64,000 bases of DNA from Candidatus Omnitrophota bacterium (GTDB lineage Bacteria; Omnitrophota; Gorgyraeia; Zapsychrales; Zapsychraceae), in the NCBI GenBank assembly GCA_018062515.1, contig JAGOSC010000005.1:880-64879 (forward strand), read 5' to 3'. Every line of letters starts with the position of its first letter. The first letter of the stretch is position 1. The notes under the pieces were generated by a model. The model was given only the letters and a program-made list of their open reading frames with translations. It was not told where the DNA came from and searched no databases. This document shows, one piece after another, positions 3 through 55,177 of this stretch. Position numbers and translations under genes: made by a program.

Positions 3-128
3 AGCCGAATGGAAAATAATAAATTAACAGGGAGCATTAAAACCTATATTGCGATTGCGAATGTATTAGGCTTTCGATTAAGTGAGATGTTTGCCATGAT
101 TGAACAGATTGAAAAAAGTCGAAATTAA
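3..128 (+). CDS. HTH XRE-family transcriptional regulator, C-terminal fragment (5' end outside window)
   Basis: Frame 3 reads ...LTGSIKTYIAIANVLGFRLSEMFAMIEQIEKSRN*. This matches the last helix of HTH_3/XRE repressors. It is open to the left edge and stops at 126-128. Confidence 0.4.
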   Translation, partial: SRMENNKLTGSIKTYIAIANVLGFRLSEMFAMIEQIEKSRN

Positions 129-144
129 AAGGAAAGGTATTACC

Positions 145-699
145 ATGACAAAGAAAGAGTCAGCAGAAAACGCGGTTAATTTAATACCCCACGAAAAAAT
201 TGAAAATAATATTTATTTAATTAGGGGCAGAAAAGTAATGCTTGATGAAGAATTAGCCGAACTATATGGTGTCCCAACAAAGTCGTTAAATTTGGCAGTT
301 AAACGAAATTTGACGCGTTTCCCGTCGGATTTTATGTTTCAATTAAATGAAAAAGAGAGCCAGTTTTTGAGGTTTCAAAATGAAACCTCAAATAAAGGCC
401 GTGGTGGTCGCAGATACTTACCTTATGTTTTTACTCAAGAAGGCGTTGCTATGCTTTCGAGTGTATTAAACAGTGAAAGGGCCATTCAAGTCAACATCCA
501 GATTATGCGGGCGTTCGTAAAGCTTCGAGAATTGATGATTTCACATAAGGGATTAGCCCAAAAAATCAATGAATTGGAAAAAAAATTTAAGGATCATGAC
601 AAAAGTATCGCCTTGATTTTTAGGGCAATCAAGGAATTATTGGAAAACCCACCTGAACAGGATAAATCTAAGCAAGGAATTGGTTTTCATGTGAGGTGA
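145..699 (+). CDS. ORF6N-domain DNA-binding protein (phage/ICE-associated)
   Basis: Motif block [18 protein letters not shown]...[13 protein letters not shown]...[22 protein letters not shown] is the ORF6N/KilA-N-like domain. GGAAAGG is a plausible RBS before the ATG at 145. The ORF table begins at 100, but that start has no better RBS. Confidence 0.7.
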   Translation: [184 protein letters not shown]

Positions 700-929: not shown

Positions 930-2012
930 ATGGGCGTATATTTTAAAAATCAAAATTGGCATATTGACTATCGTTTGAAAAACGGCATACGTAGGCGTGA
1001 GAAAGTTGGAACGAGTAAAAAGCTTGCAGAAACCGTTTTAGCAAAACGCAAAGTTGAGATCGCTGAAGATAAATTCTTAGATGTAAATAAAAAAGAAAAA
1101 ATTCGTTTTGAAGAATTTTCAATCGAATTTTTAAACATTCATTCCAAACCAAATAAAAAAAGCTGGATTTCGGATTTATACAATATAAATCGTTTAAAAA
1201 AATCCTTTAAAGGTAAATATATTTTTAGTATTACTTTAAAAGATATCGAAAAATATAAAGCTGATCGCAATGAAGAAGTTTCTTCTGCCACTGTAAACCG
1301 TGAATTGGCAACTTTAAAAACAATGTTATCTAAAGCTGTTGCGTGGGGAAAATTATCTTCAAATCCAGCTCAGAATGTTAAGTTTCTCAAAGAACCTAGT
1401 GGGCGTCTTCGTTTTTTAGAACGTGAAGAAATCTTAAAACTACTCACCAATTGCAATAAACACATGAAATCGATTGTTATACTTGCCTTAAACACCGGAA
1501 TGCGAAAAGGTGAAATTTTAGGACTTAAATGGCGGGATATAGATATTAAACGTAATATAATTACTATATTAGATACAAAAAACGGTGAAAAAAGAGAAAT
1601 TTATATGAATGAACAGGTGAAAACGGCCTTGATTAGAACCCCGAAGCATCCTGATAGCCAATTTATTTTTTGTAAAGAAGATGGTAAACCGCGTCAGGAT
1701 ATACGCAAATCATTCTTTACAGCCCTACGCAAATCTGGTATAAAAGAATTTCGTTTTCATGATTTGAGGCATACTTTTGCAAGTCAATTGGTTATGTCTG
1801 GTACAGATATTAATACTGTAAGAGAATTATTAGGACATAAGGATATTAGAATGACACTTCGATATAGCCACTTGTCACCAAGTTATAAGCAACGGGCGAT
1901 TGATATTTTGGGCAGAAAAATGGACACTTTTTGGACACTTGGCCAATCACAGGTTATTTCTGAAAATTCTGAATTATCACAAACCCTTGATAATAAATCA
2001 TTAACAGTTTAA
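930..2012 (+). CDS. int: tyrosine site-specific recombinase / phage-type integrase
   Basis: C-terminal catalytic block HDLRHTFASQLVMSGTDINTVRELLGHKDIRMTLRYSHL carries the R..H..R..Y signature. An N-terminal SAM-like domain is present. The stop abuts a tRNA gene. Confidence 0.9.
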   Translation: MGVYFKNQNWHIDYRLKNGIRRREKVGTSKKLAETVLAKRKVEIAEDKFLDVNKKEKIRFEEFSIEFLNIHSKPNKKSWISDLYNINRLKKSFKGKYIFSITLKDIEKYKADRNEEVSSATVNRELATLKTMLSKAVAWGKLSSNPAQNVKFLKEPSGRLRFLEREEILKLLTNCNKHMKSIVILALNTGMRKGEILGLKWRDIDIKRNIITILDTKNGEKREIYMNEQVKTALIRTPKHPDSQFIFCKEDGKPRQDIRKSFFTALRKSGIKEFRFHDLRHTFASQLVMSGTDINTVRELLGHKDIRMTLRYSHLSPSYKQRAIDILGRKMDTFWTLGQSQVISENSELSQTLDNKSLTV

Positions 2013-2086
2013 CGGGGCGTAGCGCAGCTGGCTAGCGCACTTGTATGGGGTACAAGAAGTCGTGAGTTCAAATCTCACCGCCCCGA
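2013..2086 (+). tRNA. tRNA-Pro (anticodon GGG)
   Basis: Cloverleaf folded by hand. Acceptor CGGGGCG/CGCCCCG with C1:G72 and discriminator A73, both typical of bacterial tRNA-Pro. D arm GCGC-AGCTGGCTA-GCGC. Anticodon stem CTTGT/ACAAG with loop AUGGGGU, giving GGG. T arm GTGAG-TTCAAAT-CTCAC. No encoded CCA. Confidence 0.85.
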
Positions 2087-2114: not shown

Positions 2115-2501
2115 ATGCTTCCCAAGAAAAAAGAAGAATCCTTTACTGAAAAACGTAAATACAAACGTTTCCGAAAGCATTTCTTATTACGTTATTACGA
2201 CATTAGGACCCCACAAAATAAGGAAGAGCTAACGCAGTTAAAAAATATTAGCCAAGGCGGAATGTGTTTTGTCACAACATCAGCGTTTCCCATCGGCACG
2301 CACATGGGTGTTGAATTGAATACACCTTTTATTACCGGCACGACCATACTTGAAGGCATTGTTCGCGGCAGTAATGAAAAAGTCAAAAATATGATCTATG
2401 AAACACGCTTGGAATTTGAAAACCTAAATACCGAGGCATTGGTTGTCCTCGATAAGTTGATTACCTTTTTTAATCGGGCTGAAGGAGCTACACATGATTA
2501 A
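2115..2501 (+). CDS. PilZ-domain protein (c-di-GMP binding candidate)
   Basis: RxxxR motif (KRKYKRFRK) followed ~30 aa later by N-I-S-Q-G-G (the D/NxSxxG motif). SD AAAAGGAG upstream. The 3' end overlaps the hom start. Confidence 0.65.
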   Translation: MLPKKKEESFTEKRKYKRFRKHFLLRYYDIRTPQNKEELTQLKNISQGGMCFVTTSAFPIGTHMGVELNTPFITGTTILEGIVRGSNEKVKNMIYETRLEFENLNTEALVVLDKLITFFNRAEGATHD

Positions 2502-3804
2502 ACACCGCAAAATTTCAGATCGAATGAACGTTGGGCTCGTCGGATATGGTGTTGTCGGCCAAGGAGTGGTTCAAATTTTAAAGAAAAACAGACGAACCTT
2601 CCAAGAAACGTATAACACGGATTTTAATCTCGTCGCTATCTGTGACCGCAGTATTCACAAAAAAAACACATCCGGCCTAACTGGAGTTAAGAGGACAAAA
2701 AATATTGATGATGTCCTCAATGATCCTAATATCGATATCGTGATTGAACTTATCGGTGGAAAACAGCCGGCTAAACAAATTGTTGAACGGGCCTTGAAAA
2801 ATGGCAAGGACGTTATCACCGCGAATAAAGATTTAATCGCGAATCATGGCCTCGAGTTATTTAAACTTGCCCAAGACAATGGCCGGCATCTTTACTATGA
2901 ATCTGCCGTTGGTGCTGGTATTCCGATCATCAAAATGATTTCTGAAACGATTGCCGGAAATTCCTTTAAAGGTCTTTACGGAATTATCAACGGGACATGC
3001 AACTTTATCCTCGATGAAATGACCACCAAACATTGTTCCTTTCAAGACGCTTTAAAAGATGCTCAAGCCAGAGGTTACGCGGAGTCTGATCCGACGCTGG
3101 ATGTCAATGGGATGGACACTACCCATAAACTCGCCATTTTAACTTTTCTTGCCTTCGGAAAAATGTTTCCGGTTAAATCTATTTATACAGAAGGGATCAG
3201 TGATATTTCTCACATTGATATTACTTATGCCGAAAGCCTTAATTTATCGATCAAATTACTCGCCATTGCAAAAGAAACAAAAGGAAACTTGGAAGTACGC
3301 GTTCATCCGACGCTGATTTCTAAAAACCATCCATTGTCGACGGTACGCGGAATTTTCAATGCTGTGTATTTAAACACAGATCCTCTGGGAAATGTGATGG
3401 TTTCCGGCGAAGGAGCCGGCCAAATGGCCGCTGCCAGCGGCGTTGTCGCCGATCTTATCAATGCGGCGAATGCTCCCAACAATCCTATGTATTGTAACCG
3501 TTATGTGCAATCAAAAGGCATACGGCTCAGAACCATTGATCATATTGAAACAAAATTTTATATACGTATTCTCGCCGCTGATAAGCCGGGCGTTTTGTCA
3601 CAGGTAACCGGTATTCTCGGTCGCGCTGGTATCGGCATCAATTCGGTAACACAGCAAGCCCATGATGCAGATTTGAAGGCCGTTCCGGTTATTATGTTGA
3701 CCGATTATTCGACGGAAAAAGCGTTACGGAGCGCGCTAAATAAGATTGAAAAATTATCCAGCGTTAAAAGCAAACCTGTAGCAATCAGGATGGAGCAATT
3801 ATAA
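2494..3804 (+). CDS. hom: homoserine dehydrogenase
   Basis: N-terminal Rossmann fold VGLVGYGVVGQGVVQIL, a central catalytic domain, and a C-terminal ACT domain (ILAADKPGVLSQVTGILG). SD GAAGGAG. Confidence 0.9.
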   Translation: MIKHRKISDRMNVGLVGYGVVGQGVVQILKKNRRTFQETYNTDFNLVAICDRSIHKKNTSGLTGVKRTKNIDDVLNDPNIDIVIELIGGKQPAKQIVERALKNGKDVITANKDLIANHGLELFKLAQDNGRHLYYESAVGAGIPIIKMISETIAGNSFKGLYGIINGTCNFILDEMTTKHCSFQDALKDAQARGYAESDPTLDVNGMDTTHKLAILTFLAFGKMFPVKSIYTEGISDISHIDITYAESLNLSIKLLAIAKETKGNLEVRVHPTLISKNHPLSTVRGIFNAVYLNTDPLGNVMVSGEGAGQMAAASGVVADLINAANAPNNPMYCNRYVQSKGIRLRTIDHIETKFYIRILAADKPGVLSQVTGILGRAGIGINSVTQQAHDADLKAVPVIMLTDYSTEKALRSALNKIEKLSSVKSKPVAIRMEQL

Positions 3805-4862
3805 TGAGTTACAAAGGCCTCATTCATCAATACAGAAAATTTTTACCACCGATCAAAGATGAAAACATCGTGACTCTTTTGGAATGCAACACCCCATTGA
3901 TTTATTCCGAGGATTTATCTAAACGCACCGGTTTAAATGTTTATCTTAAATATGAAGGGCTTAATCCGACGGGATCGTTTAAGGACCGCGGAATGACCAT
4001 GGCTATTTCGATGGCCAAGGAAAAAAACGCCAAGATCGTTATGTGCGCCTCGACGGGAAATACATCTGCCTCCGCGGCTGCATACGCCGCTAAAAGCGGG
4101 AGCATGGAATGCGTGGTTCTTATTCCCGAAGGTAATATTTCCCTCGGTAAATTAGCGCAAGCGATGATTCATAATGCCAAAGTCATACAGATTAAAGGAA
4201 ATTTTGATCACGCGCTTGAATTGGTCAAAAAAATTGCCGACGAGTTTCCCGTCGAATTGGTTAATTCGATTAATCCTTATCGCATTGAAGGTCAGAAAAC
4301 AGCGGCATTTGAGATTTGTGATGTACTCGGCGACGCGCCGCATTTTCATGCCATTCCCGTCGGAAACGCAGGAAATATCACCGCGTATTGGAAGGGTTAT
4401 AATGAATACGAACAGGCATGTATCAGCGAAAGGTTGCCGAAAATGCTTGGATTTCAAGCCGCAGGGTCAGCGCCGATTGTTCATAATAAAATTATTGAGA
4501 AGCCGGAAACAATCGCAACAGCGATTAAAATAGGAAACCCGGCGAGCTGGAAACAGGCTGTTGCCGCGCGAGATGAGTCTGGCGGATTAATTGAAGCTGT
4601 CACCGACGAAGAAATTCTTGAGGCTTATAAAATTTTAGCTAATTACAGCGGTGTGTTTTGCGAACCAGCGTCGGCAGCTAGCGTCGCAGGTGTTCTCAAA
4701 TTACATAAACGTGGTTATTTTAAGAATGATTCAGAAGCAAATTTAGTGTGCACCTTGACGGGACATGGACTAAAAGACCCGACTTCTGCTATTAATCTCA
4801 TTGGTAAACCAGTAACGGTTGAGGCTGATATATCGGCTGTACTTAAAGAAATAGGATTATAG
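3804..4862 (+). CDS. thrC: threonine synthase
   Basis: PLP-binding lysine motif NPTGSFKDRGMT. The 352-aa length matches short-form ThrC. The ATG overlaps the hom stop (TAATG). Confidence 0.9.
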   Translation: MSYKGLIHQYRKFLPPIKDENIVTLLECNTPLIYSEDLSKRTGLNVYLKYEGLNPTGSFKDRGMTMAISMAKEKNAKIVMCASTGNTSASAAAYAAKSGSMECVVLIPEGNISLGKLAQAMIHNAKVIQIKGNFDHALELVKKIADEFPVELVNSINPYRIEGQKTAAFEICDVLGDAPHFHAIPVGNAGNITAYWKGYNEYEQACISERLPKMLGFQAAGSAPIVHNKIIEKPETIATAIKIGNPASWKQAVAARDESGGLIEAVTDEEILEAYKILANYSGVFCEPASAASVAGVLKLHKRGYFKNDSEANLVCTLTGHGLKDPTSAINLIGKPVTVEADISAVLKEIGL

Positions 4863-4930
4863 AAGTCACAAGACACAAAGTCACAAGTCACATCTGACCT
4901 TGTGACATGTGTCCTGTGACATGTGACTTA
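4863..4930. repeat. heptamer-built imperfect inverted repeat (GTCACAA-type), copy 1
   Basis: GTCACAAGACACAAAGTCACAAGTCACAT-ctgacc-TTGTGACATGTGTCCTGTGACATGTGAC. It fills the thrC-coaB spacer. A 19-mer ACAAAGTCACAAGTCACAT is identical to the copy at 6776-6834. Confidence 0.6.
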
Positions 4931-4933
4931 TAG

Positions 4934-5575
4934 ATGAGTAAACTTAAGAACAAATCAGTGCTGATCACATGCGGGCCCACATGGGTTCCGATTGATGATG
5001 TGCGGGTCATTAGTAATATATCGACGGGTGAAATGGGACAAACTCTTGCGCTCGAATGCAAAAAACGAGGAGCTAAAGTTACTTTAATTGAAGGTCCCGT
5101 CGAACGTCGCTTAGTCTCCAAGGGAATTAATGTTAAACCATTTAAATATTTTACCGATTTGGCAAAAATCATTCGGAAAGAATTGAAGAAAAATTACGAT
5201 GTCATCTTTCATGCGGCAGCGGTGAGTGATTACGCCGTGAATAAACCGTCTAAAAACAAAATCAAATCGGATCGATCACGTTTAACTTTGAACTTAGTTC
5301 CATTACCAAAATTGATCCAGTCATTACGGAAATTTAGCCCTAAAGCATTCATTGTTGGATTTAAACTGGAATCTGACATGACGGAAAAAACCGCACTGGA
5401 GTCGACTCGCGGATTATTTAAAAAATCATTTTGTGATCTTGTCATCGCGAACACCGTCCGGAAACAGAAATATCTGGGTTATATTGTTGAGCAAGATAAA
5501 GTTTTAGCGAAGGGAATCACATCGCGCTCGGCAATGGTTAAAAAAATATTAAATACGGTTGAAAATAAAATATGA
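4934..5575 (+). CDS. coaB: phosphopantothenate--cysteine ligase (CoaB domain, stand-alone)
   Basis: VLITCGPTWVPIDDVRVISNISTGEMG matches the CoaB signature ITAGPT.E.ID.VR.ISN.SSGKMG. No CoaC flavoprotein domain is fused. Confidence 0.75.
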   Translation: MSKLKNKSVLITCGPTWVPIDDVRVISNISTGEMGQTLALECKKRGAKVTLIEGPVERRLVSKGINVKPFKYFTDLAKIIRKELKKNYDVIFHAAAVSDYAVNKPSKNKIKSDRSRLTLNLVPLPKLIQSLRKFSPKAFIVGFKLESDMTEKTALESTRGLFKKSFCDLVIANTVRKQKYLGYIVEQDKVLAKGITSRSAMVKKILNTVENKI

Positions 5576-6774
5576 AATACGTCGTGATTGTGCCGGATGG
5601 TATGTTCGATCATCCGCTGGAAAATTTTGATAATCGTACACCTCTGGAAATCGCTCGCACACCGAACATGGATTATCTCGCGAGAAATGGAATGAGCGGT
5701 TTGGTGCAGACTATTCCTGATAAGCTTCCCCCAGGGTCTGACGTCGGAAATATGGCCATACTTGGTTATAATCCTGAAATTTCTTTGACTGGGCGATCGC
5801 CGCTGGAAGCTGCGAACATGGGCATCGATTTAAAGGAAGATGAGATTGCATTTCGCTGCAATATGATTACCGAAATGAATGGAATCATGGCAGATTACAG
5901 CGCCGGGCATATCCGGACAGAAGAAGCAGCAATTTTGATCGAAGCGTTAAAAAACCACCTCGGAACTAGAGAGGTAAAATTTTACGCGGGAAAAAGTTAC
6001 CGCCACATTATGGTTCTAAAAACCACGAATCTTAATGAATTTCTAGCGATTAAAACTGTGCCGCCGCATGACATCATCGACCAACCCATTGAAAAGTATT
6101 TGCCGCATGGCCCATTAGCGGATAAACTCATCGGTATTATGGAACAATCCAAAGCGATTTTTGCGGAAAATTCCATTAATCAAGTCCGCATTGATTTAAA
6201 AGAAAATCCGGCGACGATGATTTGGTTGTGGGGACAAGGGACGAAACCAAATCTTATACCTTTTAAAAAAAAATATGGGATTAGCGGATCCATTATTTCC
6301 GCCGTGGATCTTGTCAACGGTTTAGGACGATTGGCCGGATTAAATGTGATTGATGTCCCAGGCGCGACGGGTTACTACGATACCAACTACCAGGGAAAAG
6401 CGGATTATGCGATGGAATCGTTAAAGAAACATGATTATGTCTATATTCACATTGAATCACCCGACGAAGCTGGCCATAACGGAGATGCGCAAGCGAAAAT
6501 TGAAGCGATTGAAAAAATTGATAAGTATGTCGTCGGAACTGTATTAAATCACTTTGGGGACCATCCGGATGCGCGTATCCTAGTTTTACCAGATCATCCG
6601 ACGCCAGTTGTATTACGTACTCATACTCATGAGCCGGTCGGTTTTGCTATGTACGGGCGCGGCATTCCACCCAGCGGTGTAGATTCATACACTGAATCAT
6701 CGACACAAGAAATAGGAATGAAATTCAAGAGTGGCGAAGAAATGATTGAATACTTTATTAAGAAAAATTTATAA
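5572..6774 (+). CDS. cofactor-independent phosphoglycerate mutase family protein (archaeal-type iPGM/ApgM-like); candidate homoserine kinase analog
   Basis: MKYVVIVPDGMFDHP...NMDYLARNGMSGL...DVGNMAILGY is the ApgM-type metalloenzyme N-terminus. It is 400 aa and embedded in the hom-thrC-lysC cluster. ATGA overlap with coaB. Confidence 0.8.
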   Translation: MKYVVIVPDGMFDHPLENFDNRTPLEIARTPNMDYLARNGMSGLVQTIPDKLPPGSDVGNMAILGYNPEISLTGRSPLEAANMGIDLKEDEIAFRCNMITEMNGIMADYSAGHIRTEEAAILIEALKNHLGTREVKFYAGKSYRHIMVLKTTNLNEFLAIKTVPPHDIIDQPIEKYLPHGPLADKLIGIMEQSKAIFAENSINQVRIDLKENPATMIWLWGQGTKPNLIPFKKKYGISGSIISAVDLVNGLGRLAGLNVIDVPGATGYYDTNYQGKADYAMESLKKHDYVYIHIESPDEAGHNGDAQAKIEAIEKIDKYVVGTVLNHFGDHPDARILVLPDHPTPVVLRTHTHEPVGFAMYGRGIPPSGVDSYTESSTQEIGMKFKSGEEMIEYFIKKNL

Positions 6775-6775
6775 A

Positions 6776-6834
6776 TGACACAAGATACAAAGTCACAAGT
6801 CACATGTGTCATTGTGACCTGTGTCTTGTGTCTG
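6776..6834. repeat. heptamer-built imperfect inverted repeat (GTCACAA-type), copy 2
   Basis: GACACAAGATACAAAGTCACAAGTCACATG-TGTCATTGTGACCTGTGTCTTGTGTC. It lies directly after the iPGM-like stop. Confidence 0.6.
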
Positions 6835-6856: not shown

Positions 6857-8083
6857 ATGAAAAAAGATATTGTCGTGCTAAAATTCGGCGGTTCTTCCGT
6901 CGCAAATATTGACCGCATTAAAAACGTAGCCCGGCGCATTGTCGACTCAAAAACGAAAACGAATAATTTAGTCGTTGTCGTTTCGGCCCTGGGAGATACG
7001 ACGGATGAATTAGAAGAAATGGCCTTTAAACTCTGTGATAATCCGCCGGACCGTGAAATGGATTTACTCATGTCAACTGGCGAACAAATTTCTTCTGCGC
7101 TTGTGGCTATGGCGATTAAATCACTGGGTCTTGACGCCATTGCCTTTACCGGCCCGCAAGTCGGAATTAAAACCGATAAATCGCATACAAACGCACGGGT
7201 CATGTCGATAGAATCGCCGCGCATCAAAAAAGCGCATCAGCAAAATAAAATTGTCATCGTCGCCGGTTATCAGGGAATTACCGAGGATGATGAGATTACA
7301 ACACTTGGGCGAGGCGGATCGGATCTGACAGCCGTTGCTTTAGCCGTCGCTCTTAAAGCCAAGGTATGTGAAATTTATACCGACGTGACCGGCATCTTCA
7401 CGACGGATCCACGCAAAGTTAAAGATGCGCGTAAAATAAAAACCATCACGTTTGAAGAAATGCTCGAAATGGCTTCTCTGGGCGCGCAGGTTATGCAGGC
7501 CCGCTCAATCGAAGTCGCCAAACGTTTTAATGTGCCAATCCATGTTCGATCAAGTTTTTCTAAGGAGGAAGGAACCATGATAGTGAAAGACGCACCTAAA
7601 ATCGAAGATATCGCCGTACGCGGCATTACCAGCAATACATCTGAAGCAAAAATTACCATACACGCCGTTCCTGATCAAACAGGTATCGCGGCGAGTATAT
7701 TTACGGAGATTTCTAAAAAAGGTGTCAACGTCGACATTATCGTCCAGAATGTTTCTAACACAGGCTTGACGGATATTTCTTTCACGGTTCCAAAAAAAGA
7801 ATTAGGGAAAGCTTTAGACGCATCCAATAATGTCGCCAAAAAAATTAAAGCCGGGCAAGTTACGTCGGCATCCAACATTGCCCGCGTGTCAATTATCGGT
7901 TCAGGCATGCGCTCGCATAATGGTATTGCAGCTAAGATGTTTGACACATTGGCTAAATTAAAAGTCAATATTGAAATGATTTCCACGTCGGAAATAAGCA
8001 TTTCTTGTATCATTAACGAAAAGCACGCCGAAAAGGCAACACTGGGATTACATAAAGCGTTCGCGCTCGATAAAATAAAATAA
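6857..8083 (+). CDS. lysC: aspartate kinase
   Basis: N-terminus VLKFGGSSV with VVVVSALGDTTDEL (amino-acid kinase fold) and two C-terminal ACT domains. SD AAAGGA. Confidence 0.9.
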   Translation: MKKDIVVLKFGGSSVANIDRIKNVARRIVDSKTKTNNLVVVVSALGDTTDELEEMAFKLCDNPPDREMDLLMSTGEQISSALVAMAIKSLGLDAIAFTGPQVGIKTDKSHTNARVMSIESPRIKKAHQQNKIVIVAGYQGITEDDEITTLGRGGSDLTAVALAVALKAKVCEIYTDVTGIFTTDPRKVKDARKIKTITFEEMLEMASLGAQVMQARSIEVAKRFNVPIHVRSSFSKEEGTMIVKDAPKIEDIAVRGITSNTSEAKITIHAVPDQTGIAASIFTEISKKGVNVDIIVQNVSNTGLTDISFTVPKKELGKALDASNNVAKKIKAGQVTSASNIARVSIIGSGMRSHNGIAAKMFDTLAKLKVNIEMISTSEISISCIINEKHAEKATLGLHKAFALDKIK

Positions 8084-8120: not shown

Positions 8121-9689
8121 ATGCAACGATTTATCATTTATGACACGACATTACGCGACGGCAGTCAAACCGAGGGTGTCAGTTATACGGTAAGCGACAA
8201 AATCAAGATCACCCACAAACTCGACGAGCTGGGCGTGCATTATATCGAAGGCGGTTGGCCGGGTTCTAATCCAAAGGACCAGGAATATTTCGCGCATTTT
8301 AAGGGCAAGAAATTAAAAAGCGCCGTTATTACCGCGTTTGGTTCGACTCGACGGGCTAAATCACCGACGGCAAAAGACGCGAATATCCGCGCACTCATTC
8401 AATCCGGAGCCAAGACCATTTGTATTTTCGGTAAATCGTGGGATTTGCATGTGACCGATGTCATCAAAACAACACTCGAAGAAAATCTAAGCATGATTTA
8501 TGATTCGGTTCAATATCTTAAAAAACAAAAGAAAGAAGTCTTCTACGACGCTGAACATTTTTTTGACGGGTTTAAAAATAATCCGGAATACGCGCTTAAG
8601 GCCGTCTTAACCGCCCAGAAAGCAGGGGCCGATTGTATTATTTTCTGCGATACCAATGGCGGAACCCTTCCAAGTGAAGTTTATAAAATCATCAGCGAAA
8701 TCAAACATCACTTTGATATCCCTTTGGGTATCCATTGCCATCATGATATGGAATTAGGTGTAGCGAATTCAATTGCAGCCGTCGAGGCTGGATGTAAACA
8801 AATTCAAGGAACATTTAATGGTTTAGGCGAACGTTGTGGAAACGCGAATCTTGCGACAATCATCGGCATTTTGCAAACAAAAATGAAATTCGAATGTTTA
8901 CCCAAAGCTAATTTAAACAAGTTAATGGACACTTGTTATTTTATCAGTGAAATCTCGAACAATCTTATTCCGAACAATGCCGCGTTTGTCGGTCATTCAG
9001 CATTCGCGCATAAAGGTGGCGTGCATATTGATGCCATGATGAAAAATCCGCTCGCGTATGAGCATATTGATCCTAAGCTCGTTGGAAATCACAGCCGATT
9101 TATCACATCGGAACTCGCCGGAAAAATGCCGATTGTTAAAAAAGCTGAACAGATGAATGTTGTACTCGATAAAAAGTCCCCTCAAACGAAAAAATTGATG
9201 AAACAACTGCAAGATAAAGAACACAGTGGTTATCAATTTGAAGCGGCGGATGCATCTTTTGAACTGTTTTTGAAACGCCAATTGAAAAAATATAAACCAT
9301 TTTTTATCCTCGAAGGTTTCCGAACCTATTCTGAAAAACGTCAGGATGGACGAGTGTTTGCGGAAGCGACTGTACGCTTAAGTGTTGACGGTCAGGAAAA
9401 GTACGCGGCCGTTGAAGGCGATGGCCCCGTCGACGCATTGGATAAGGCTTTACGGCAAGCATTAAATCCTTTTTATCCCAAGCTCCAGGAAATGCGTTTG
9501 TCTGATTATAAAGTCCGGGTGTTAGATACTAAAGAAGGAACGGGCGCTAAGGTGCGGGTCTTAATCGAAACACATGATGAACATGATTCTTGGACCACCG
9601 TCGGAGTTCATGAAAATATCATTGAAGCCTCGTGGGAAGCCTTAACCGATGCAATCGAATATAAATTATTAAAAGACCAAAAGAAATAG
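8121..9689 (+). CDS. cimA: (R)-citramalate synthase (LeuA/CimA family, Geobacter-type)
   Basis: YDTTLRDGSQ...IEGGWPGSNPKD...AFGSTRRAK...YDAEHFFDG...GIHCHHDMELGVANS...AFAHKGGVHIDA plus a LeuA-dimer-like C-terminus (VRVLIETHDEHDSWTTVGVHENIIEASWEAL). Co-linear with TIGR00977-type citramalate synthases as I recall them. SD GGAGG. Confidence 0.85.
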   Translation: MQRFIIYDTTLRDGSQTEGVSYTVSDKIKITHKLDELGVHYIEGGWPGSNPKDQEYFAHFKGKKLKSAVITAFGSTRRAKSPTAKDANIRALIQSGAKTICIFGKSWDLHVTDVIKTTLEENLSMIYDSVQYLKKQKKEVFYDAEHFFDGFKNNPEYALKAVLTAQKAGADCIIFCDTNGGTLPSEVYKIISEIKHHFDIPLGIHCHHDMELGVANSIAAVEAGCKQIQGTFNGLGERCGNANLATIIGILQTKMKFECLPKANLNKLMDTCYFISEISNNLIPNNAAFVGHSAFAHKGGVHIDAMMKNPLAYEHIDPKLVGNHSRFITSELAGKMPIVKKAEQMNVVLDKKSPQTKKLMKQLQDKEHSGYQFEAADASFELFLKRQLKKYKPFFILEGFRTYSEKRQDGRVFAEATVRLSVDGQEKYAAVEGDGPVDALDKALRQALNPFYPKLQEMRLSDYKVRVLDTKEGTGAKVRVLIETHDEHDSWTTVGVHENIIEASWEALTDAIEYKLLKDQKK

Positions 9690-9697
9690 AAAAATAA

Positions 9698-9795
9698 CTA
9701 AGTGGTAAGTGGTAAGTGGTAGGTGATAAGTGATATGAAATTTTACTAACCACTCACTGATGACTTACCACATATCACTTACCACTTATCACTCT
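9698..9795. repeat. heptamer-built imperfect inverted repeat (GTGGTAA-type)
   Basis: AAGTGGTAAGTGGTAAGTGGTAGGTGATAAGTGATATG ... ACTTACCACATATCACTTACCACTTATCACT between cimA and valS. It overlaps the ORF-table start of valS (9760). Confidence 0.6.
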
Positions 9796-9798
9796 AAT

Positions 9799-12408
9799 AT
9801 GGAACTAGATAAACGTTTTGATTTTAAAACTGTTGATGCCAAGTGGACGGCTTACTGGGAAAAGAATAATTGTTTTCACGCCACACCCAGCGATAAGAAG
9901 CCTTATGTCATCACCATCCCGCCCCCGAATGTTACCGGTATTCTTCACATGGGACACGCACTCAATAATACTTTGCAAGACATTCTCATCCGTTACAAAC
10001 GCATGCAAGGTTTTGAAACCTGCTGGATGCCGGGAACGGACCATGCTGGGATCGCCACGCAAAACGTCGTCGAGAAACAGTTAGCCAAAGAAGGGACTAA
10101 CCGTCATGCGGTCGGGCGGGAAAAACTTCTGCAACGCTTGTGGGAATGGAAACAGCAGTATGGGGACACCATCATCAATCAACTTAAAGCTATTGGCGCG
10201 TCCTGCGATTGGCCCCGCGCCGCCTTCACGATGGATGAACAATACAGCGAAGCCGTTAAAAAAGTTTTTATTGAGCTTTACAAAAAAGATCTCATTTATC
10301 AAGGCGAGCGAATTATCAATTGGTGCCCGCGTTGCCGCACCGCTTTATCTGATGAAGAAAGCGAACACGAAGAAAAACAGGGCACGTTAACGCATATCAA
10401 ATATCCGCTTAAAGATGATCCAAATCAATTTATTACGGTAGCGACCACCCGTCCTGAAACCATGTTAGGAGATACCGCCGTCGCTGTTCATCCGAATGAT
10501 GAACGCTACAAAAACCTTCATGGTAAAACACTTATTTTACCTATATTACGTCGAGAAATTCCTATTATTACCGATGAATTCGTGGATCCGACATTCGGCA
10601 GCGGAGCTGTCAAAGTAACGCCAGCGCATGATCCCAATGACTTTGATATGGGACGTCGCCATAATCTTAAATTTATCCGTGTCATGAATGAAGATGGAAC
10701 AATGAATGAACAAGCCGGCCCTTTTGCTGGTCAAGACCGTTTTGTCGCCCGCAAAGGTGTCCTCGAAGCTCTTAAAAATGAAGGCGTGTTTGTGAAACAA
10801 GAAGACCACACACATTCAGTCGGGCATTGTTATCGATGTCACTCAATCGTTGAACCTTATTTATCCAAACAATGGTTTGTCCGTATGGAACCGTTGGCTC
10901 GTCCAGCCATTGAAGCTGTCCGTTCCGGAGAAATAAAATTTCATCCCGCGCGTTGGGAAAAAGTCTACATGAACTGGATGGAAAATATCCGGGACTGGTG
11001 TATTTCTCGTCAGATTTGGTGGGGCCATCGCATTCCAGTTTGGTACGATGAACAAGGCAATCCTTATGCGGCGAATAATGAAGAAGAAGCGATCAAACTT
11101 TCCGGAAAGAAAAATTTACGCCAAGATGAAGATGTTCTCGATACCTGGTTCTCGTCGTGGTTATGGCCATTTGCCACGTTTGGTTATCCCAACAAAAATA
11201 AAGATTTGGAATTTTTTTATCCAGGCGATGCGCTTTTTACCGCCTCAGAAATTATCTTTTTTTGGGTGGCGCGTATGATCATGGCCGGATATGAATTCAT
11301 GGGCGATTTACCATTTAAAGACGTTTTCATTCATGGAACCGTGCGCGATGCACAAGGTCGTAAAATGAGCAAATCGCTAGGCAATGCCATTGATCCTCTG
11401 GAAATCGTCGACGAATATGGCGCCGATGCTTTAAGATTTTCTTTGATTCATAATTCCGGGCAAGACTTGTATATATCCAAAGATAATTTTGAGGTAGGAC
11501 GAAACTTTGCGAATAAAATTTGGAATGCTTCACGCCTTATATTAATGAATGTAGAATCCCGCGAATCCAAAAACACGAGTTCACTTGTTCCTATCGATGG
11601 AGATTTGGCCAGCAAGTGGATCGTTTCCCGGTTTTATTCAACATTAAAAAATGTGGAGGAAGCCATCGAGAATTTTCGTTATTCCGAGGCTGAACATTTG
11701 ATTTATGAATTCTTCTGGACGAATTTATGTGATTGGTATTTCGAAATTATTAAAAGTCAAAATCGATGGAATGAACCAGCTGTACAAAGATTGGTAGTAC
11801 AAATTCTCGAAGAATCCTTAAAGATGATGCATCCGTTTATTCCCTTTGTCACCGAGGAGATTTGGGAACATTTAAACAAAGAAAAAGGGCCACTATGCCT
11901 TCAAGATTGGCCTAAAGTTAATCAACAATTCATCAATGCTGAAATTGAGTCAGACATGCAGCAATATATCATGAACACGACTATTGCTATACGTGATATC
12001 CGAGCCACGCGGAATATTCCTCTCAAAAAAAATATACCCGTTAGCTATGATGGAGAGACCGAAGACATTGAACGTTTTCTGAAAAACCAAGATATTGTCA
12101 CATCCCTTACAAACTCTACAGTAAGTCTGGGACGAATAGTAACGGTTAACTGTGCTACTGCAATCGTCGGTAAAATCACATTGACCGTTCCCTTGGAAAA
12201 TCTTATCGACAATGAGGCCGAAAAAAATCGCATCCAAAAACAAATGGACACAGCGACAAAAAGTTATGATTCGTTGAAAAACCGACTCTCCAATGAAAGC
12301 TTTCTCGCTAAAGCCCCCGAAGATGTAGTCAAGAAAGAACAAGAGCGCTTAAAGACGTTAGAACATGAAATTACTGAATTTCAAAACGTTTTAAAAAACT
12401 TGAAATAG
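9799..12408 (+). CDS. valS: valine--tRNA ligase
   Basis: Class I motifs HMGH (PPPNVTGILHMGHA) and KMSKS. CP1 editing domain present. C-terminal coiled coil. The ATG at 9799 (MELDKRFDF...) is preferred over the in-frame 9760, which lies inside the palindrome. Confidence 0.93.
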   Translation: MELDKRFDFKTVDAKWTAYWEKNNCFHATPSDKKPYVITIPPPNVTGILHMGHALNNTLQDILIRYKRMQGFETCWMPGTDHAGIATQNVVEKQLAKEGTNRHAVGREKLLQRLWEWKQQYGDTIINQLKAIGASCDWPRAAFTMDEQYSEAVKKVFIELYKKDLIYQGERIINWCPRCRTALSDEESEHEEKQGTLTHIKYPLKDDPNQFITVATTRPETMLGDTAVAVHPNDERYKNLHGKTLILPILRREIPIITDEFVDPTFGSGAVKVTPAHDPNDFDMGRRHNLKFIRVMNEDGTMNEQAGPFAGQDRFVARKGVLEALKNEGVFVKQEDHTHSVGHCYRCHSIVEPYLSKQWFVRMEPLARPAIEAVRSGEIKFHPARWEKVYMNWMENIRDWCISRQIWWGHRIPVWYDEQGNPYAANNEEEAIKLSGKKNLRQDEDVLDTWFSSWLWPFATFGYPNKNKDLEFFYPGDALFTASEIIFFWVARMIMAGYEFMGDLPFKDVFIHGTVRDAQGRKMSKSLGNAIDPLEIVDEYGADALRFSLIHNSGQDLYISKDNFEVGRNFANKIWNASRLILMNVESRESKNTSSLVPIDGDLASKWIVSRFYSTLKNVEEAIENFRYSEAEHLIYEFFWTNLCDWYFEIIKSQNRWNEPAVQRLVVQILEESLKMMHPFIPFVTEEIWEHLNKEKGPLCLQDWPKVNQQFINAEIESDMQQYIMNTTIAIRDIRATRNIPLKKNIPVSYDGETEDIERFLKNQDIVTSLTNSTVSLGRIVTVNCATAIVGKITLTVPLENLIDNEAEKNRIQKQMDTATKSYDSLKNRLSNESFLAKAPEDVVKKEQERLKTLEHEITEFQNVLKNLK

Positions 12409-53814: not shown

Positions 53815-53908
53815 TACCAAAGATCGTGATAGATTCTGTGTTGACGATGTGTACAATATCAATTATATTATTTACACATATCCACGGTCTAAACGCTTAA
53901 AAAAATTC

Positions 53909-55177
53909 ATGAATAAAATGCGAAAATCAATTTTTATTATGGGCAGAAAATTTACGATTTTATTATCCTTATTTTTAATTTTCTTAACATGTCAAGAAAG
54001 CTGCGTATTCGCTTCACAGGAAGAAGACATCAAGACGGTCGCTGAAAATAATCAGCAATTTGCCTTTGATTTGTATTCTCAAATTAAAAACAATGATGAC
54101 AATCTGTTCTTTTCTCCATTTAGTATTTCGATGGCTTTGGCCATGACCTACGCTGGCGCCCGCGGAAATACAGAAAAGCAAATGGCGGAAACTCTCCATT
54201 TTTCTCTCAACCAAGATGAGTTACATCCGATTTTCCTAAAAATCAACCGGGATTTACAAGCTGATCAAGGGGAAAAAGGTTTTGAACTTTCGATTGCGAA
54301 TGCCCTATGGGGAGAAAAAAGTTTTAAATTTCATAAGTCTTTTATCGATCTAACAAAAAATTATTATGAAGCCGGGTTTAAAGAAGCTGATTTTAAAAAC
54401 AACGCCGAACCCGAACGTCAAACGATCAATAGCTGGGTTGAAAAACAAACCAAAGATAAGATCAAAGACTTACTTCTCCCGAGAGTTTTGACAGAAATAA
54501 CAAAATTGGTTTTAGTAAATGCCATTTACTTTAAAGGACATTGGATATATCCATTTGAGAAAGAATACACACAACCAAGAAAATTTGAATTAATAAGCGG
54601 AGAGCAAATTGAAGTGCCGACGATGAATCAGGAAAGTTCGTATGGATATTCGGAAAATGAAACGCTTCAAATTCTTGAAATGCCTTACAAAGGCGATGAG
54701 CTGTCTATGGTTATTTTTCTTCCTAAAAAAGCGGGCGGAATAAAAGAATTAGAGGCTTCGCTTAAAACAGAGAATGTCCGAAATTGGCTTTCAAAATTAG
54801 AGAAACAAGAAGTCACTGTATTTTTACCAAAATTTACAATGACCAGAGAATTTTCTTTAAAAGAAAACTTTGAATCACTCGGAATGACCGATGCGTTTAA
54901 TCCATACGCGGCTGATTTTTCCGGTATGTCTCCGCTAGCCTTAGATACAGAATATCATTTATGCATATCGGAAATAATTCATAAAGCCTTTGTGGATGTG
55001 AATGAAGAAGGTACTGAGGCTGCTGCCGCGACCGCTGTTGTCATGGTCAAGATGACTGCCGCAGCCGTAGAACCAAAACCTATTTTTAACGCTGACCATC
55101 CGTTTATTTTTATTATTCGTGATAAGATTTCCGATAATATTTTATTTATCGGCCGGGTAATGGACCCTTTAAAATAA
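53909..55177 (+). CDS. serpin (serine protease inhibitor), secreted
   Basis: Serpin core NAIYFKGHWIYPF. Reactive-centre-loop hinge EEGTEAAAATAVVM. C-terminal signature HPFIFIIRDKISDNILFIGRVMDP. Signal peptide after M at 53909 (KFTILLSLFLIFLTCQESCVFA). The upstream in-frame 53849 start is unlikely. Confidence 0.85.
   Translation: MNKMRKSIFIMGRKFTILLSLFLIFLTCQESCVFASQEEDIKTVAENNQQFAFDLYSQIKNNDDNLFFSPFSISMALAMTYAGARGNTEKQMAETLHFSLNQDELHPIFLKINRDLQADQGEKGFELSIANALWGEKSFKFHKSFIDLTKNYYEAGFKEADFKNNAEPERQTINSWVEKQTKDKIKDLLLPRVLTEITKLVLVNAIYFKGHWIYPFEKEYTQPRKFELISGEQIEVPTMNQESSYGYSENETLQILEMPYKGDELSMVIFLPKKAGGIKELEASLKTENVRNWLSKLEKQEVTVFLPKFTMTREFSLKENFESLGMTDAFNPYAADFSGMSPLALDTEYHLCISEIIHKAFVDVNEEGTEAAAATAVVMVKMTAAAVEPKPIFNADHPFIFIIRDKISDNILFIGRVMDPLK

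Follow-up and report, generated by a model that had tools for sequence, protein, structure and literature searches.

Two genes, one CoaB-like and the other called iPGM-like in a sequence-only reading, stand between the threonine synthase gene and the aspartate kinase gene of an Omnitrophota operon, and a long hairpin built from seven-nucleotide units lies on either side of the pair. The question raised by this locus is whether the hairpins are the scars of an insertion which brought the two genes into a classical thr/lys cluster, signals which act on the transcript, or repeats with a history of their own. The window, i.e. the whole stretch of DNA that was analysed, has a length of 64 kb, and the features discussed here are collected in Table 1. 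Our answer is that the hairpins are not insertion scars and fit best among the REP-like intergenic repeats, as a type already known.

Table 1. Heptad hairpins, flanking repeats and genes of the operon in the window.
Feature	Position	Strand	Basis or remark
hom (homoserine dehydrogenase)	2494..3804	+	NF004976, 492 bits
thrC (threonine synthase)	3804..4862	+	TIGR00260, 326 bits
Left TTATAGA, perfect 7-nt direct repeat abutting E1	4857..4863	+	sequence; contains thrC stop TAG
E1, heptad palindrome, thrC/coaB gap	4863..4930	+	MFE-fold pairing 4865-4920
Right TTATAGA	4928..4934	+	sequence; runs into coaB ATG (4934-4936)
CoaB-like (DFP-family) gene	4934..5575	+	own score below curated cut-offs; PF04127 on orthologues
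apgM-type gene, 'proposed homoserine kinase' (the iPGM-like gene)	5572..6774	+	TIGR02535
E2, heptad palindrome homologous to E1, apgM-like/lysC gap	6776..6834	+	paired 6777-6832
lysC (aspartate kinase)	6857..8083	+	profile match
cimA (citramalate synthase)	8121..9689	+	TIGR00977, 738 bits
E3, heptad palindrome, cimA/valS gap	9699..9788	+	MFE -43.8 kcal/mol, z -8.0
valS	9799..12408	+	start most likely ATG 9799

The basic description of E1 and E2 given by the sequence-only reading stands. They share an identical 19-mer, ACAAAGTCACAAGTCACAT, which is found exactly twice in the window (4875-4893 and 6787-6805); allowing up to 3 mismatches brings no third match in the window. The expectation is 0.02 matches, and none of 100 shuffles reached two. 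Each hairpin consists of four forward heptad units (GWCACA-N) followed by four inverted units. The 5' arm of E1 reads GTCACAA GACACAA(A) GTCACAA GTCACAT and its 3' arm, beyond the loop, TTGTGAC ATGTGTC CTGTGAC ATGTGAC. In the 64 kb, hexamers matching GWYACA/TGTRWC are grouped in threes or more at just two places, 4865-4927 and 6777-6832, and all six window matches to GTCACAWGTSACA fall inside E1 or E2, compared to an expectation of 0.12. The RNA fold of E1 has an energy of -32.5 kcal/mol (z -4.2) and that of E2 -31.3 kcal/mol (z -5.6), and in neither case did any of 200 shuffles equal it. Both are imperfect hairpins, as proposed. The homology extends beyond the 19-mer to about 57 nt, with a 6-nt spacer followed by TTGTGAC in both, and an alignment (A1) of E1, E2 and the orthologous E1 of two relatives has a mean column identity of 81%. 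The outermost heptad pair shows a compensatory change, GTCACA/TGTGAC in E1 against GACACA/TGTGTC in E2.

It was also correctly seen that E1 and E2 fill the only two gaps from hom to lysC: hom and thrC overlap by 1 nt and coaB and the apgM-like gene by 4 nt, while the thrC/coaB and apgM/lysC gaps are 71 and 82 nt. The claim that they bracket exactly the two genes is true within this segment but not for the operon as a whole, where a third hairpin, E3, which had been missed, lies two gaps past apgM/lysC and is stronger than E1 and E2. It has at least five units, (TGGTAAG)n in the 5' arm and CTTACCA-type in the 3' arm. E1, E2 and E3 were detected by hexamer clustering, a sliding RNA fold and lag-7 autocorrelation; a default ungapped-extension repeat search missed all three. 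Among lags 5 to 8, repeat segments appear in the window at lag 7 only, and none appear in 20 shuffles. By the same autocorrelation the remaining 54 kb contain no heptad hairpins; the copy number is two plus one in 64 kb, all in one operon. The three hairpins are 57-90 nt long with stems of 20-32 bp and 23-32 paired positions; they begin 2-9 nt past the upstream stop codon and finish 4-25 nt ahead of the downstream start. The start of valS given in the open reading frame list, 9760, falls inside E3; the ATG in Table 1 is the most likely start, judged from the N-terminus MELDKRFDFK which it gives and which relatives conserve.

One reading takes the hairpins for the footprints or ends of an insertion that carried the coaB/iPGM-like pair into a classical hom-thrC-lysC cluster. 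In its favour, E1 and E2 are homologous and, between hom and lysC, enclose precisely this pair. The gene content says otherwise. The apgM-like protein scores 520.9 bits with TIGR02535, 'proposed homoserine kinase', for which the cut-off is 446.3 bits, and a homologue carries the name 'Predicted functional analog of homoserine kinase'; because of this match and this name we regard the gene as a member of the threonine pathway and not as an interruption of a classical cluster. We then looked at synteny in nine relative lineages, ranked by the identity of the apgM-like protein (62-83%). The order PilZ-hom-thrC-coaB-apgM-lysC-cimA-valS is kept in all nine as far as the contigs reach, the CoaB-like gene of every relative has thrC on one side and the apgM-like gene on the other, and thrC-coaB-apgM-lysC is found both with and without the elements. 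About 103 kb of operon loci from the six lineages at 62-71% identity show the same gene order and are free of heptad arrays; the junctions of these lineages are short, mostly 1-27 nt, with 66 nt at thrC/coaB in one of them (L179). The sequence-only reading had itself named the same gene order without the elements as evidence against MITE-like ends of an insertion. Together with E3 at cimA/valS and the hairpins in nearly every gap of the relative L121, these observations leave an insertion of the gene pair scarcely any probability. The coaB and apgM-like pair is an old and stable component of the Omnitrophota threonine/lysine operon, and a false signal of horizontal insertion is removed. The annotation gains in two places, as the iPGM-like gene is re-read as a proposed homoserine kinase and the valS start is shifted.

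A related idea is that the hairpins are integron attC sites and that the pair is a gene cassette, with the tyrosine recombinase at 930-2012 upstream of it. The elements are imperfect palindromes of 57-68 nt right after the stops of co-oriented genes, and the recombinase does match the integron-integrase model TIGR02249 weakly, at 83 bits. This is, however, far under the IntI cut-off of 265 bits, and the gene adjoins a tRNA-Pro and a phage Rha/ORF6N gene in the manner of a phage-type integrase. No R'' (RYYYAAC) or R' (GTTRRRY) cores are present at the elements, the heptad periodicity is foreign to attC sites, and the gene content is invariant in the nine relative lineages. We give the attC interpretation practically no weight at all.

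The relatives also show how the hairpins change with time. At thrC/coaB a homologous GWCACA palindrome, with a differing order of heptads, is present in the window, in L121/L122 and in L125/L126. At apgM/lysC the window has a GWCACA palindrome, L125-127 a 6-bp remnant and L121 a palindrome of CCCAG units, and at lysC/cimA a CCCAG-type palindrome is found in L121 and L125 and none in the window. In L121, an 82% relative, nearly every gap of the operon is occupied: six gaps hold heptad palindromes, of no fewer than four units, and one more lies in frame within a variable linker of ValS. The units seen at the different sites are GWCACA, TGGTAAG, GACCAG, CCCAG and GAGACA. Arrays are identical between independent assemblies of the same populations (L121/L122; L125/L126/L127) and show no slippage. 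The palindromes have thus been shown to have colonised very short junctions of an ancient operon in one Omnitrophota clade, consisting of the window and its 82-83% relatives, and to have remained at these junctions ever since, with gain, loss and exchange of heptads. A candidate view of the hairpins as an operon-specific feature throughout Omnitrophota was rejected, as the six distant lineages have the operon without them; the association of hairpins and operon is clade-specific. The elements are also dispensable: besides these six lineages, L125 has a decayed element and the window lacks one. One and the same operon is available as a natural series with no elements, three or seven, in which units turn over at fixed sites.

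How the palindromes came into the junctions is a separate matter. They could be copies of a small non-autonomous mobile element of the MITE, REPIN or RPE kind, inserting at stop/start junctions, and as posed also occasionally in frame into genes, with the enzyme supplied in trans. E1/E2 homology covers both arms and the spacer. E1 is flanked by the perfect TTATAGA repeat, and in silico removal of the hairpin with one TTATAGA copy restores a TAG/ATG junction, which could weakly suggest a target-site duplication. TTTGTA stands on both sides of the L125 remnant, a heptad palindrome lies in frame in the L121 ValS linker, one 30-nt arm occurs at two L121 sites, and the GWCACA architecture with its arm order is common to several phyla. 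MITE-like terminal inverted repeats are trivially present, the whole element being an inverted repeat, and multiple copies amount to two homologous ones in the window, where no parent IS was seen. Against a mobile element it must be said that units vary by site, so that no single sequence-specific enzyme fits, and that most elements have no clear flanking duplication: about 12 elements with A/T-rich flanks were inspected and the duplication was convincing in E1 and the L125 remnant only, with none clear for E2, E3 and the L121 elements. The near-identical left arms at 6449 and 15841 of L121 have unlike loops and right arms. The copy number in the window is low, 14 kb from a second region in the assembly of the same sequencing run as L125 contain no heptad hairpins, none of the 32 scanned window proteins matches a transposase family, and GTAG or CGTC end tags are lacking. 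We consider a mobile element unlikely.

The next question is whether the hairpins act on the transcript. The sequence-only reading had suggested REP-like transcription terminators, and this has to be divided. The REP-like part is borne out by intergenic palindromes past stop codons in a co-directional operon and by a family that is found in unrelated junctions. As terminators or attenuators the hairpins would split the operon into separately regulated units, and strong stem-loops immediately past stop codons invite this thought, the more so as the inner E2 stem is picked out, in either orientation, by a terminator consensus scan. Hairpins without U-tracts serve as terminators in some phyla. 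Yet the 'tail' flagged at E2 is the 3' arm of the larger hairpin, and none of the tails after E1, E2 and E3 (TTATAGATG, TGATATGAAAGG and CTCTAATATG) contains a U-tract. The scan finds 14 sites against 15.4 in shuffles, i.e. no enrichment. Neither coaB nor valS has a promoter-like site or a Shine-Dalgarno sequence between hairpin and start, and both genes would therefore depend on read-through; lysC has a Shine-Dalgarno-like AAAGGA 3' of E2 and then ATG 6857. A similar hairpin stands between pyrK and pyrD, which code for two subunits of one enzyme. A role in termination is accordingly very improbable.

Two further analyses at the RNA level were carried out. Rfam 15 gave no match at gathering score for the hairpins, only chance-level matches to miRNA hairpins (E 0.7-0.9; 22-30 bits vs. 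53-80). Selection on the RNA was assessed from the stability of the sense and antisense folds and the number of G-U pairs, and the two sets of hairpins contradict each other. In the operon set the sense fold is the more stable in 5 of 12 elements, with 13 G-U pairs in sense and 37 in antisense; in hairpins from other genomes it is the more stable in 8 of 10, with 29 G-U pairs in sense and 14 in antisense.

Heptad hairpins are not ubiquitous, and within the sampled DNA they cluster in this operon, but they do occur elsewhere. In other Omnitrophota and in Planctomycetes, GWCACA palindromes sit flush in the junctions asd/truA, pyrK/pyrD, ispH/rpsA, nitroreductase/DAO oxidoreductase and unknown/uvrA. 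A degenerate heptad scan of genome contigs gave 18 loci labelled Omnitrophota among the at least 120 listed; many of the 120 are microsatellites, spread over many phyla, that consist of nothing but (GTCACAA)n or (GACACAA)n. A scan of metagenome contigs with the 19-mer gave 43 loci, none of which is the thr operon and only about four of which are heptad hairpins; the majority are copies of a dispersed repeat without relation to the elements, from samples Ga0209145 and Ga0209783, or lie in other contexts. The arms keep a consistent order across loci, with a ratio of 35:3 for GWCACA palindromes and of 36:13 for the remaining units, and in the 5' arm the trinucleotide (A/C)AG is conserved where one unit meets the next, in units as different as TCACAAG, TGGTAAG and CCCCAG. 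A search of the literature on these heptads or on Omnitrophota repeats gave nothing specific.

The strict 7-nt period, this conserved boundary and the arm order might indicate that the units are read by a protein. The hairpins would then be arrays of binding sites which regulate translation or decay of the downstream cistron. Candidate readers are OB-fold proteins (cold-shock or S1 type), HutP-like RNA binders and DNA-binding regulators. There is a precedent in CspB, which binds one heptamer per protein and has been discussed in connection with TAACTGA repeats (PMC4679880). On the other hand the heptads are unconstrained from site to site at four of their seven positions, and pairing of the arms would mask the single strands that such a protein needs. 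No suitable protein is associated with the elements, and relatives have the same operon without them. There is only a slight chance that this is their function.

The same regularities could be taken one step further. Heptad palindromes of Omnitrophota, Planctomycetota, Elusimicrobiota and Acidobacteriota might form a distinct, actively generated intercistronic class with a dedicated mechanism for writing or reading them, defined by the 7-nt period, the (A/C)AG unit boundary and the fixed order 5'-(NNNN[A/C]AG)n ... (CT[G/T]NNNN)n-3'. We regard this as rather improbable. If it were true, the writer could be a unit-templating step of a polymerase or primase at stop/start junctions, sometimes in frame; alternatively a heptad-reading OB-fold protein would control translational coupling or decay. 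The mechanism would have been recruited in this clade for tuning the hom...valS operon. The consistent arm order and the in-frame valS copy are the observations most likely to lead somewhere new.

The explanation which we prefer, by a little over an even chance, is that E1-E3 are inverted pairs of short heterogeneous intergenic heptamer SSR arrays of the Xanthomonas type, probably passive REP-like stem-loops. The arrays would change by slippage of whole units, and the arms would stay complementary through repair, either inside one hairpin or from one copy to another. The hairpins would be transcribed as part of the polycistronic mRNA and form long stem-loops of helices of about 6 bp split by single mismatches; as there is no U-tail, transcription should pass through them. 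Folding would return the upstream stop and the downstream start to within about 8-20 nt of each other. The hairpins may be tolerated because the fold brings stop and start close and so preserves the translational coupling of the compact ancestral junctions. Whether they do more is a weaker point: a REP-type effect, i.e. a barrier to 3'-exonucleolytic decay which sets the relative stability of mRNA segments, has somewhat less than an even chance of being real and selected, and the alternative is that the hairpins are neutral passengers. It should be noted that an origin in situ leaves unaccounted the whole-length homology of E1 and E2, the 30-nt arm shared within L121, the TTATAGA repeat and the arm order.

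Interpreted as SSR arrays, the hairpins extend the poorly studied excess of 7-nt repeats and their pairing into hairpins in bacterial intergenic DNA to uncultivated phyla of the PVC group. The natural series is suited for asking how such palindromes originate, how they are maintained and what they do to the expression of an operon.

The elements resemble several known systems in part. The Rickettsia palindromic elements (RPE) are families of 100-150 bp with conserved sequence and no heptad periodicity. The palindrome in frame in an essential gene, the valS linker of L121, is like an RPE; the heptad period is not.

REP and BIME sequences are units of 20-40 bp, with stems of 8-9 bp in the CGTC families, a loop of 4-5 nt, an unpaired GTAG/CGTC tag, high copy number and a link to the RAYT transposase (Di Nocera et al., 2013, PMC3733652). 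In common with them the heptad hairpins are small extragenic palindromes 3' of ORFs, between unidirectional or convergent genes, plausibly transcribed and occasionally inside genes, and for either kind a part in stabilising mRNA can be proposed. The differences are the length of 57-90 nt with longer, heptad-built stems, the absence of GTAG or CGTC from E1 and E2 (the one GTAG of E3 is inside the stem), the low copy number in the sampled DNA and the absence of a RAYT among the 32 scanned window proteins.

The cyanobacterial STRR and the TAACTGA repeats, the latter found in Beggiatoaceae, Cyanobacteria and Bacteroidetes (MacGregor, 2015, PMC4679880), are likewise tandem 7-nt units in mostly intergenic positions. 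TAACTGA-type repeats often end a few nucleotides from a start codon and contain mixed heptamers per region, and neighbouring relatives have shorter gaps without repeats, all of which is also seen here. They are, however, essentially direct arrays (of 170 sets in the Guaymas genome a single one is inverted) and are predicted to be unstructured, whereas E1-E3 are palindromic and strongly structured.

The closest likeness is to the heptamer arrays (GGGAATC) of Xanthomonas, of which there are about 185 per genome, intergenic, perfect or heterogeneous and of 2 to about 14 units (Rehm et al., 2015, PMC4692102). The hairpins described here belong to another phylum, and no quadruplex is expected as their units are A/C-rich or mixed without G-tracts; several unrelated units occur in one operon, the arrays are short and fused into a compact hairpin which fills the intercistronic gap, and the copy number appears low and clustered in the 64 kb sampled. 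Polymerase slippage has been proposed as the reason for the heptamer excess in Xanthomonas, where 70-75 convergent pairs of arrays per genome are able to form stem-loops; E1-E3 likewise have tandem 7-nt units, four per arm in E1 and E2 and at least five in E3, and complementary convergent arrays whose stem-loop folds have the z-scores given above. Two related Xanthomonas species have the arrays mostly in the same gene gaps, where length and sequence vary and the single or paired type is kept (PMC4692102), and in the same way the thrC/coaB, apgM/lysC and lysC/cimA positions are common to the window, L121 and L125, with variation.

The two elements around the coaB and iPGM-like genes in the sequence-only reading (E1 and E2; see table) are present in the window exactly as noted. 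They share the 19-mer ACAAAGTCACAAGTCACAT, for which 0.02 occurrences are expected by chance in the window, and a search of the window allowing up to three mismatches gave no further site. Hexamers of the GWYACA type and their complements form just two clusters in 64 kb, in each of which four forward units precede four inverted ones, and as single strands both elements fold into long imperfect hairpins (E1: -32.5 kcal/mol, z -4.2; E2: -31.3 kcal/mol, z -5.6; 0 of 200 shuffles as stable for either), which bears out the proposed heptad-built structure. The gap list also agrees that E1 and E2 fill the only two gaps of the hom-to-lysC stretch. Outside the 19-mer both have a central spacer of 6 nt followed by TTGTGAC, and in alignment A1, which contains E1, E2 and the orthologous thrC/coaB elements of two relatives, all match full-length with a mean column identity of 81%. 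The outermost heptad pair shows a compensatory change, GTCACA/TGTGAC in one element versus GACACA/TGTGTC in the other.

Coordinates of the features in the window and in the fetched loci of relatives (L-numbers)
Feature	Sequence	Position	Remark
ORF6N/Rha regulator	window	100-699	phage-type
Tyrosine recombinase	window	930-2012	
tRNA-Pro(GGG)	window	2013-2086	adjoins recombinase, just upstream of operon
hom	window	2494-3804	NCBIfam
thrC	window	3804-4862	NCBIfam
E1	window	4863-4930	thrC/coaB gap
TTATAGA	window	4857-4863, 4928-4934	perfect 7-nt direct repeat either side of E1
GWYACA clusters	window	4865-4927, 6777-6832	
ACAAAGTCACAAGTCACAT	window	4875-4893, 6787-6805	
CoaB-like (DFP-family) protein	window	4934-5575	NCBIfam
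apgM-type protein	window	5572-6774	NCBIfam; the iPGM-like gene
E2	window	6776-6834	apgM/lysC gap
lysC	window	6857-8083	NCBIfam
cimA	window	8121-9689	NCBIfam
cimA-valS interval	window	9690-9798	
E3	window	9699-9788	cimA/valS gap
valS	window	from 9799	NCBIfam
Four contiguous giant ORFs	window	22019-52088	2640, 1727, 3472, 2173 aa
Serpin, bacterial	window	53849-55177	425 bits
HTTM / vitamin-K-dependent gamma-carboxylase-like protein	window	59502-61166	
cimA-valS interval	L121	14183-15933	
In-frame palindrome in valS	L121	17695-17770	CCCAG-type heptads
cimA-valS interval	L123	14087-16326	
Element remnant	L125	about 2401-2436	flanked by TTTGTA pair
hom/thrC gap	L171	7936-8193	258 nt
cimA-valS interval	L172	14009-14752	
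cstA (carbon starvation)	L178	11209-12855	between apgM-like gene and lysC

A third element, E3, absent from the sequence-only reading, was found by a sliding fold and lag-7 autocorrelation. It consists of TGGTAAG-type units and their complements (TGGTAAG/CTTACCA) and is the strongest of the three hairpins (-43.8 kcal/mol, z -8.0). The start of valS in the ORF list (ATG 9760) falls within its 3' arm; the conserved ValS N-terminus MELDKRFDFK begins at ATG 9799, and likewise in L121 and L123. The elements lie flush with stop and start codons. Of the four operon gaps that measure 25 nt or more, three contain an element, versus none of 13 such gaps elsewhere in the window (Fisher about 0.006, post hoc and hand-calculated from the gap list), and the remaining 54 kb of the window contain no heptad arrays. 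Another 14-kb region, assembled from the sequencing run that also yielded L125, has none in its 9 gaps either.

The operon was retrieved from nine relative lineages, graded by identity of the apgM-like protein: L125-127 (83%), L121/L122 (82%), L179 (71%), L123/L124 (70%), L171 (69%), L172/L173 (66%), and L177 and L178 (62%). The first two groups form a clade with the window genome. L121 has heptad palindromes in six gaps (tRNA/PilZ, thrC/coaB, apgM/lysC, lysC/cimA, cimA/X and X/valS) made of at least four different units, GACCAGN, GWCACAN, NCCCAGN and GAGACAA, and one more in frame within valS, in a variable linker that follows the KMSKS region, which makes its ValS about 16 residues longer than those of the window and L123. 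All three clade genomes retain a GWCACA palindrome at thrC/coaB; at apgM/lysC the window has GWCACA, L125-127 a 6-bp remnant and L121 a CCCAG palindrome; at lysC/cimA L121 and L125 have palindromes of the CCCAG type and the window has no element. The position persists while the units turn over.

It had been suggested that the elements might be footprints of an insertion which brought in coaB and the iPGM-like gene, and an unchanged gene order in relatives free of the elements was chosen beforehand as the observation to refute this. That is what the comparison gave. The order (PilZ)-hom-thrC-DFP-apgM-lysC-cimA-...-valS (DFP being the CoaB-like gene) is found on every relative contig to its limits, apart from one contig with an added cstA and several with one or two added genes before valS. 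A lag-7 scan of about 103 kb of operon loci from the six lineages at 62-71% found no heptad arrays, and their junctions are mostly 1-27 nt or overlapping (66 nt at thrC/coaB in L179). The insertion is thereby refuted: coaB and the apgM-like gene have long been part of the operon, the hairpins came later, and they are dispensable in relatives. Nor does the iPGM-like gene interrupt a thr/lys cluster, since it scores 520.9 bits against TIGR02535 ("proposed homoserine kinase"), above the cut-off of 446.3, and one homologue is named "Predicted functional analog of homoserine kinase"; it is a member of the threonine pathway. The cstA of L178, which lacks heptad elements, shows that genuine gene insertions do occur at the apgM/lysC junction. 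The cimA-valS junction, where E3 sits, is variable: valS follows cimA directly in the window and L177, and the extra genes elsewhere encode unknown proteins of 520 aa or 147+511 aa or, in L172, an NTase/HEPN-like pair. The hom/thrC gap of L171 holds a palindrome about 200 nt long and not built of heptads (-74.5 kcal/mol), which may be a MITE-like element of another kind in the same operon.

The heptad palindromes themselves could have arisen from a mobile element. E1 and E2 are homologous end to end, two L121 sites have a 30-nt arm in common, one copy lies in frame in valS, and when E1 is deleted with one copy of the TTATAGA repeat the thrC stop TAG abuts the coaB ATG. Such an origin, unlikely in our view, is a serious rival. 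The L125 remnant has a comparable TTTGTA pair on its flanks. Many contigs of metagenomes Ga0209145 and Ga0209783 (loci L128, L131, L134, L137, L138, L140, L141, L148, L156, L160-L162 and L169) also contain the 19-mer, there without a hairpin and as part of an unrelated dispersed repeat (...ACAAAGCTACAAAGTCACAAGTCACATTCAGTTTCAAAGTGTCTCC...).

A degenerate three-heptad pattern, searched in one genome per species, matched at least 120 loci, 18 of them labelled Omnitrophota among the matches listed, many of which are plain microsatellites. Mixed-heptad palindromes recur, among the matches listed, in Omnitrophota, Planctomycetes, Elusimicrobia and Acidobacteria. In eleven cases inspected the palindrome nearly fills the gap between mostly co-directional genes; the first arm begins typically 1-9 nt (up to 39) after the upstream stop, and the downstream start either follows the second arm by 5-10 nt or overlaps the end of that arm. 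The genes on either side form unrelated housekeeping pairs (asd/truA, pyrK/pyrD, ispH/rpsA, nitroreductase/DAO oxidoreductase, unknown/uvrA). From these unrelated pairs and the gap-filling elsewhere it follows that the elements are generic and unconnected with gene insertions.

Inverted heptad pairs from many phyla (L001-L120, L121 and the window) have in the 5' arm the form of the unit that contains AG, typically NNNN(A/C)AG, and in the 3' arm the CT form; the elements being palindromic, the 5' arm is identical whichever strand is read. The tally is 35:3 within the GWCACA family and 36:13 among other units (p about 0.001, kinship ignored), and E1, E2, E3 and all L121 elements follow the rule. 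For units outside the GWCACA family, GT, GG and AA also outnumber their complements in the 5' arms. An arm order is not expected from simple hairpin thermodynamics. That period, boundary trinucleotide and arm order together reflect a dedicated mechanism seems to us very doubtful.

As to how the elements change and act, the arrays would change by unit-wise slippage, with either selection or repair inside the hairpin upholding the complementarity of the arms. They would be transcribed along with the operon, and folding would return stop and start codons to within about 8-20 nt. No Shine-Dalgarno sequence lies past the hairpin before coaB and valS, which in relatives start 4-45 nt from the upstream stop; both could remain translationally coupled through hairpin folding. 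If active at all, the stem-loops might be REP-like barriers to 3' decay. A comparison of sense with antisense did not support selection at the level of the transcript, and we therefore entertain a selected RNA function only tentatively.

No Rfam family matched the elements. Intrinsic terminators were rejected: a U-tract is absent, terminator-like sites are no commoner than in shuffles, and in two such calls within E2 the tail is its own 3' arm. Integron attC sites were rejected as well, for core sites are absent and the recombinase nearby reaches 83 bits, the integron-integrase cut-off being 265 bits; its own neighbours are the tRNA-Pro and the phage Rha/ORF6N gene. At the equivalent spot L177 has an integrase with conjugation (T4SS) genes and L121 small phage-like genes, and the tRNA-Pro(GGG) site looks like an integration hot spot. 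Elsewhere in the window, the three giant ORFs scanned (2640, 1727 and 2173 aa) fuse domains of metabolic enzymes: HpcH/HpaI aldolase-citrate lyase, MaoC dehydratase, zinc alcohol dehydrogenase, two acyl-CoA dehydrogenase modules, ACC carboxyltransferase and a cNMP-binding domain.

The REP-like reading holds in spirit, for these are generic intergenic elements which would work as REPs do, yet they are not REPs: the GTAG/CGTC end tags are absent and the stems are far longer. Xanthomonas genomes have about 185 heptamer arrays each, and in 70-75 cases two convergent arrays on opposite strands could form a stem-loop (Rehm et al., 2015, PMC4692102); heptamers are over-represented among bacterial SSRs, for which polymerase slippage has been proposed as the reason (relayed in Rehm et al., 2015). 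TAACTGA heptamer arrays stop just short of start codons, and in relatives the gaps are shorter and the repeats absent (MacGregor, 2015, PMC4679880). E1, E2, E3 and their like differ from these arrays in phylum, in units, in forming one compact fused hairpin and in the mixture of units in a single operon, but they have the architecture and evolutionary behaviour in common and therefore belong to this already described kind.
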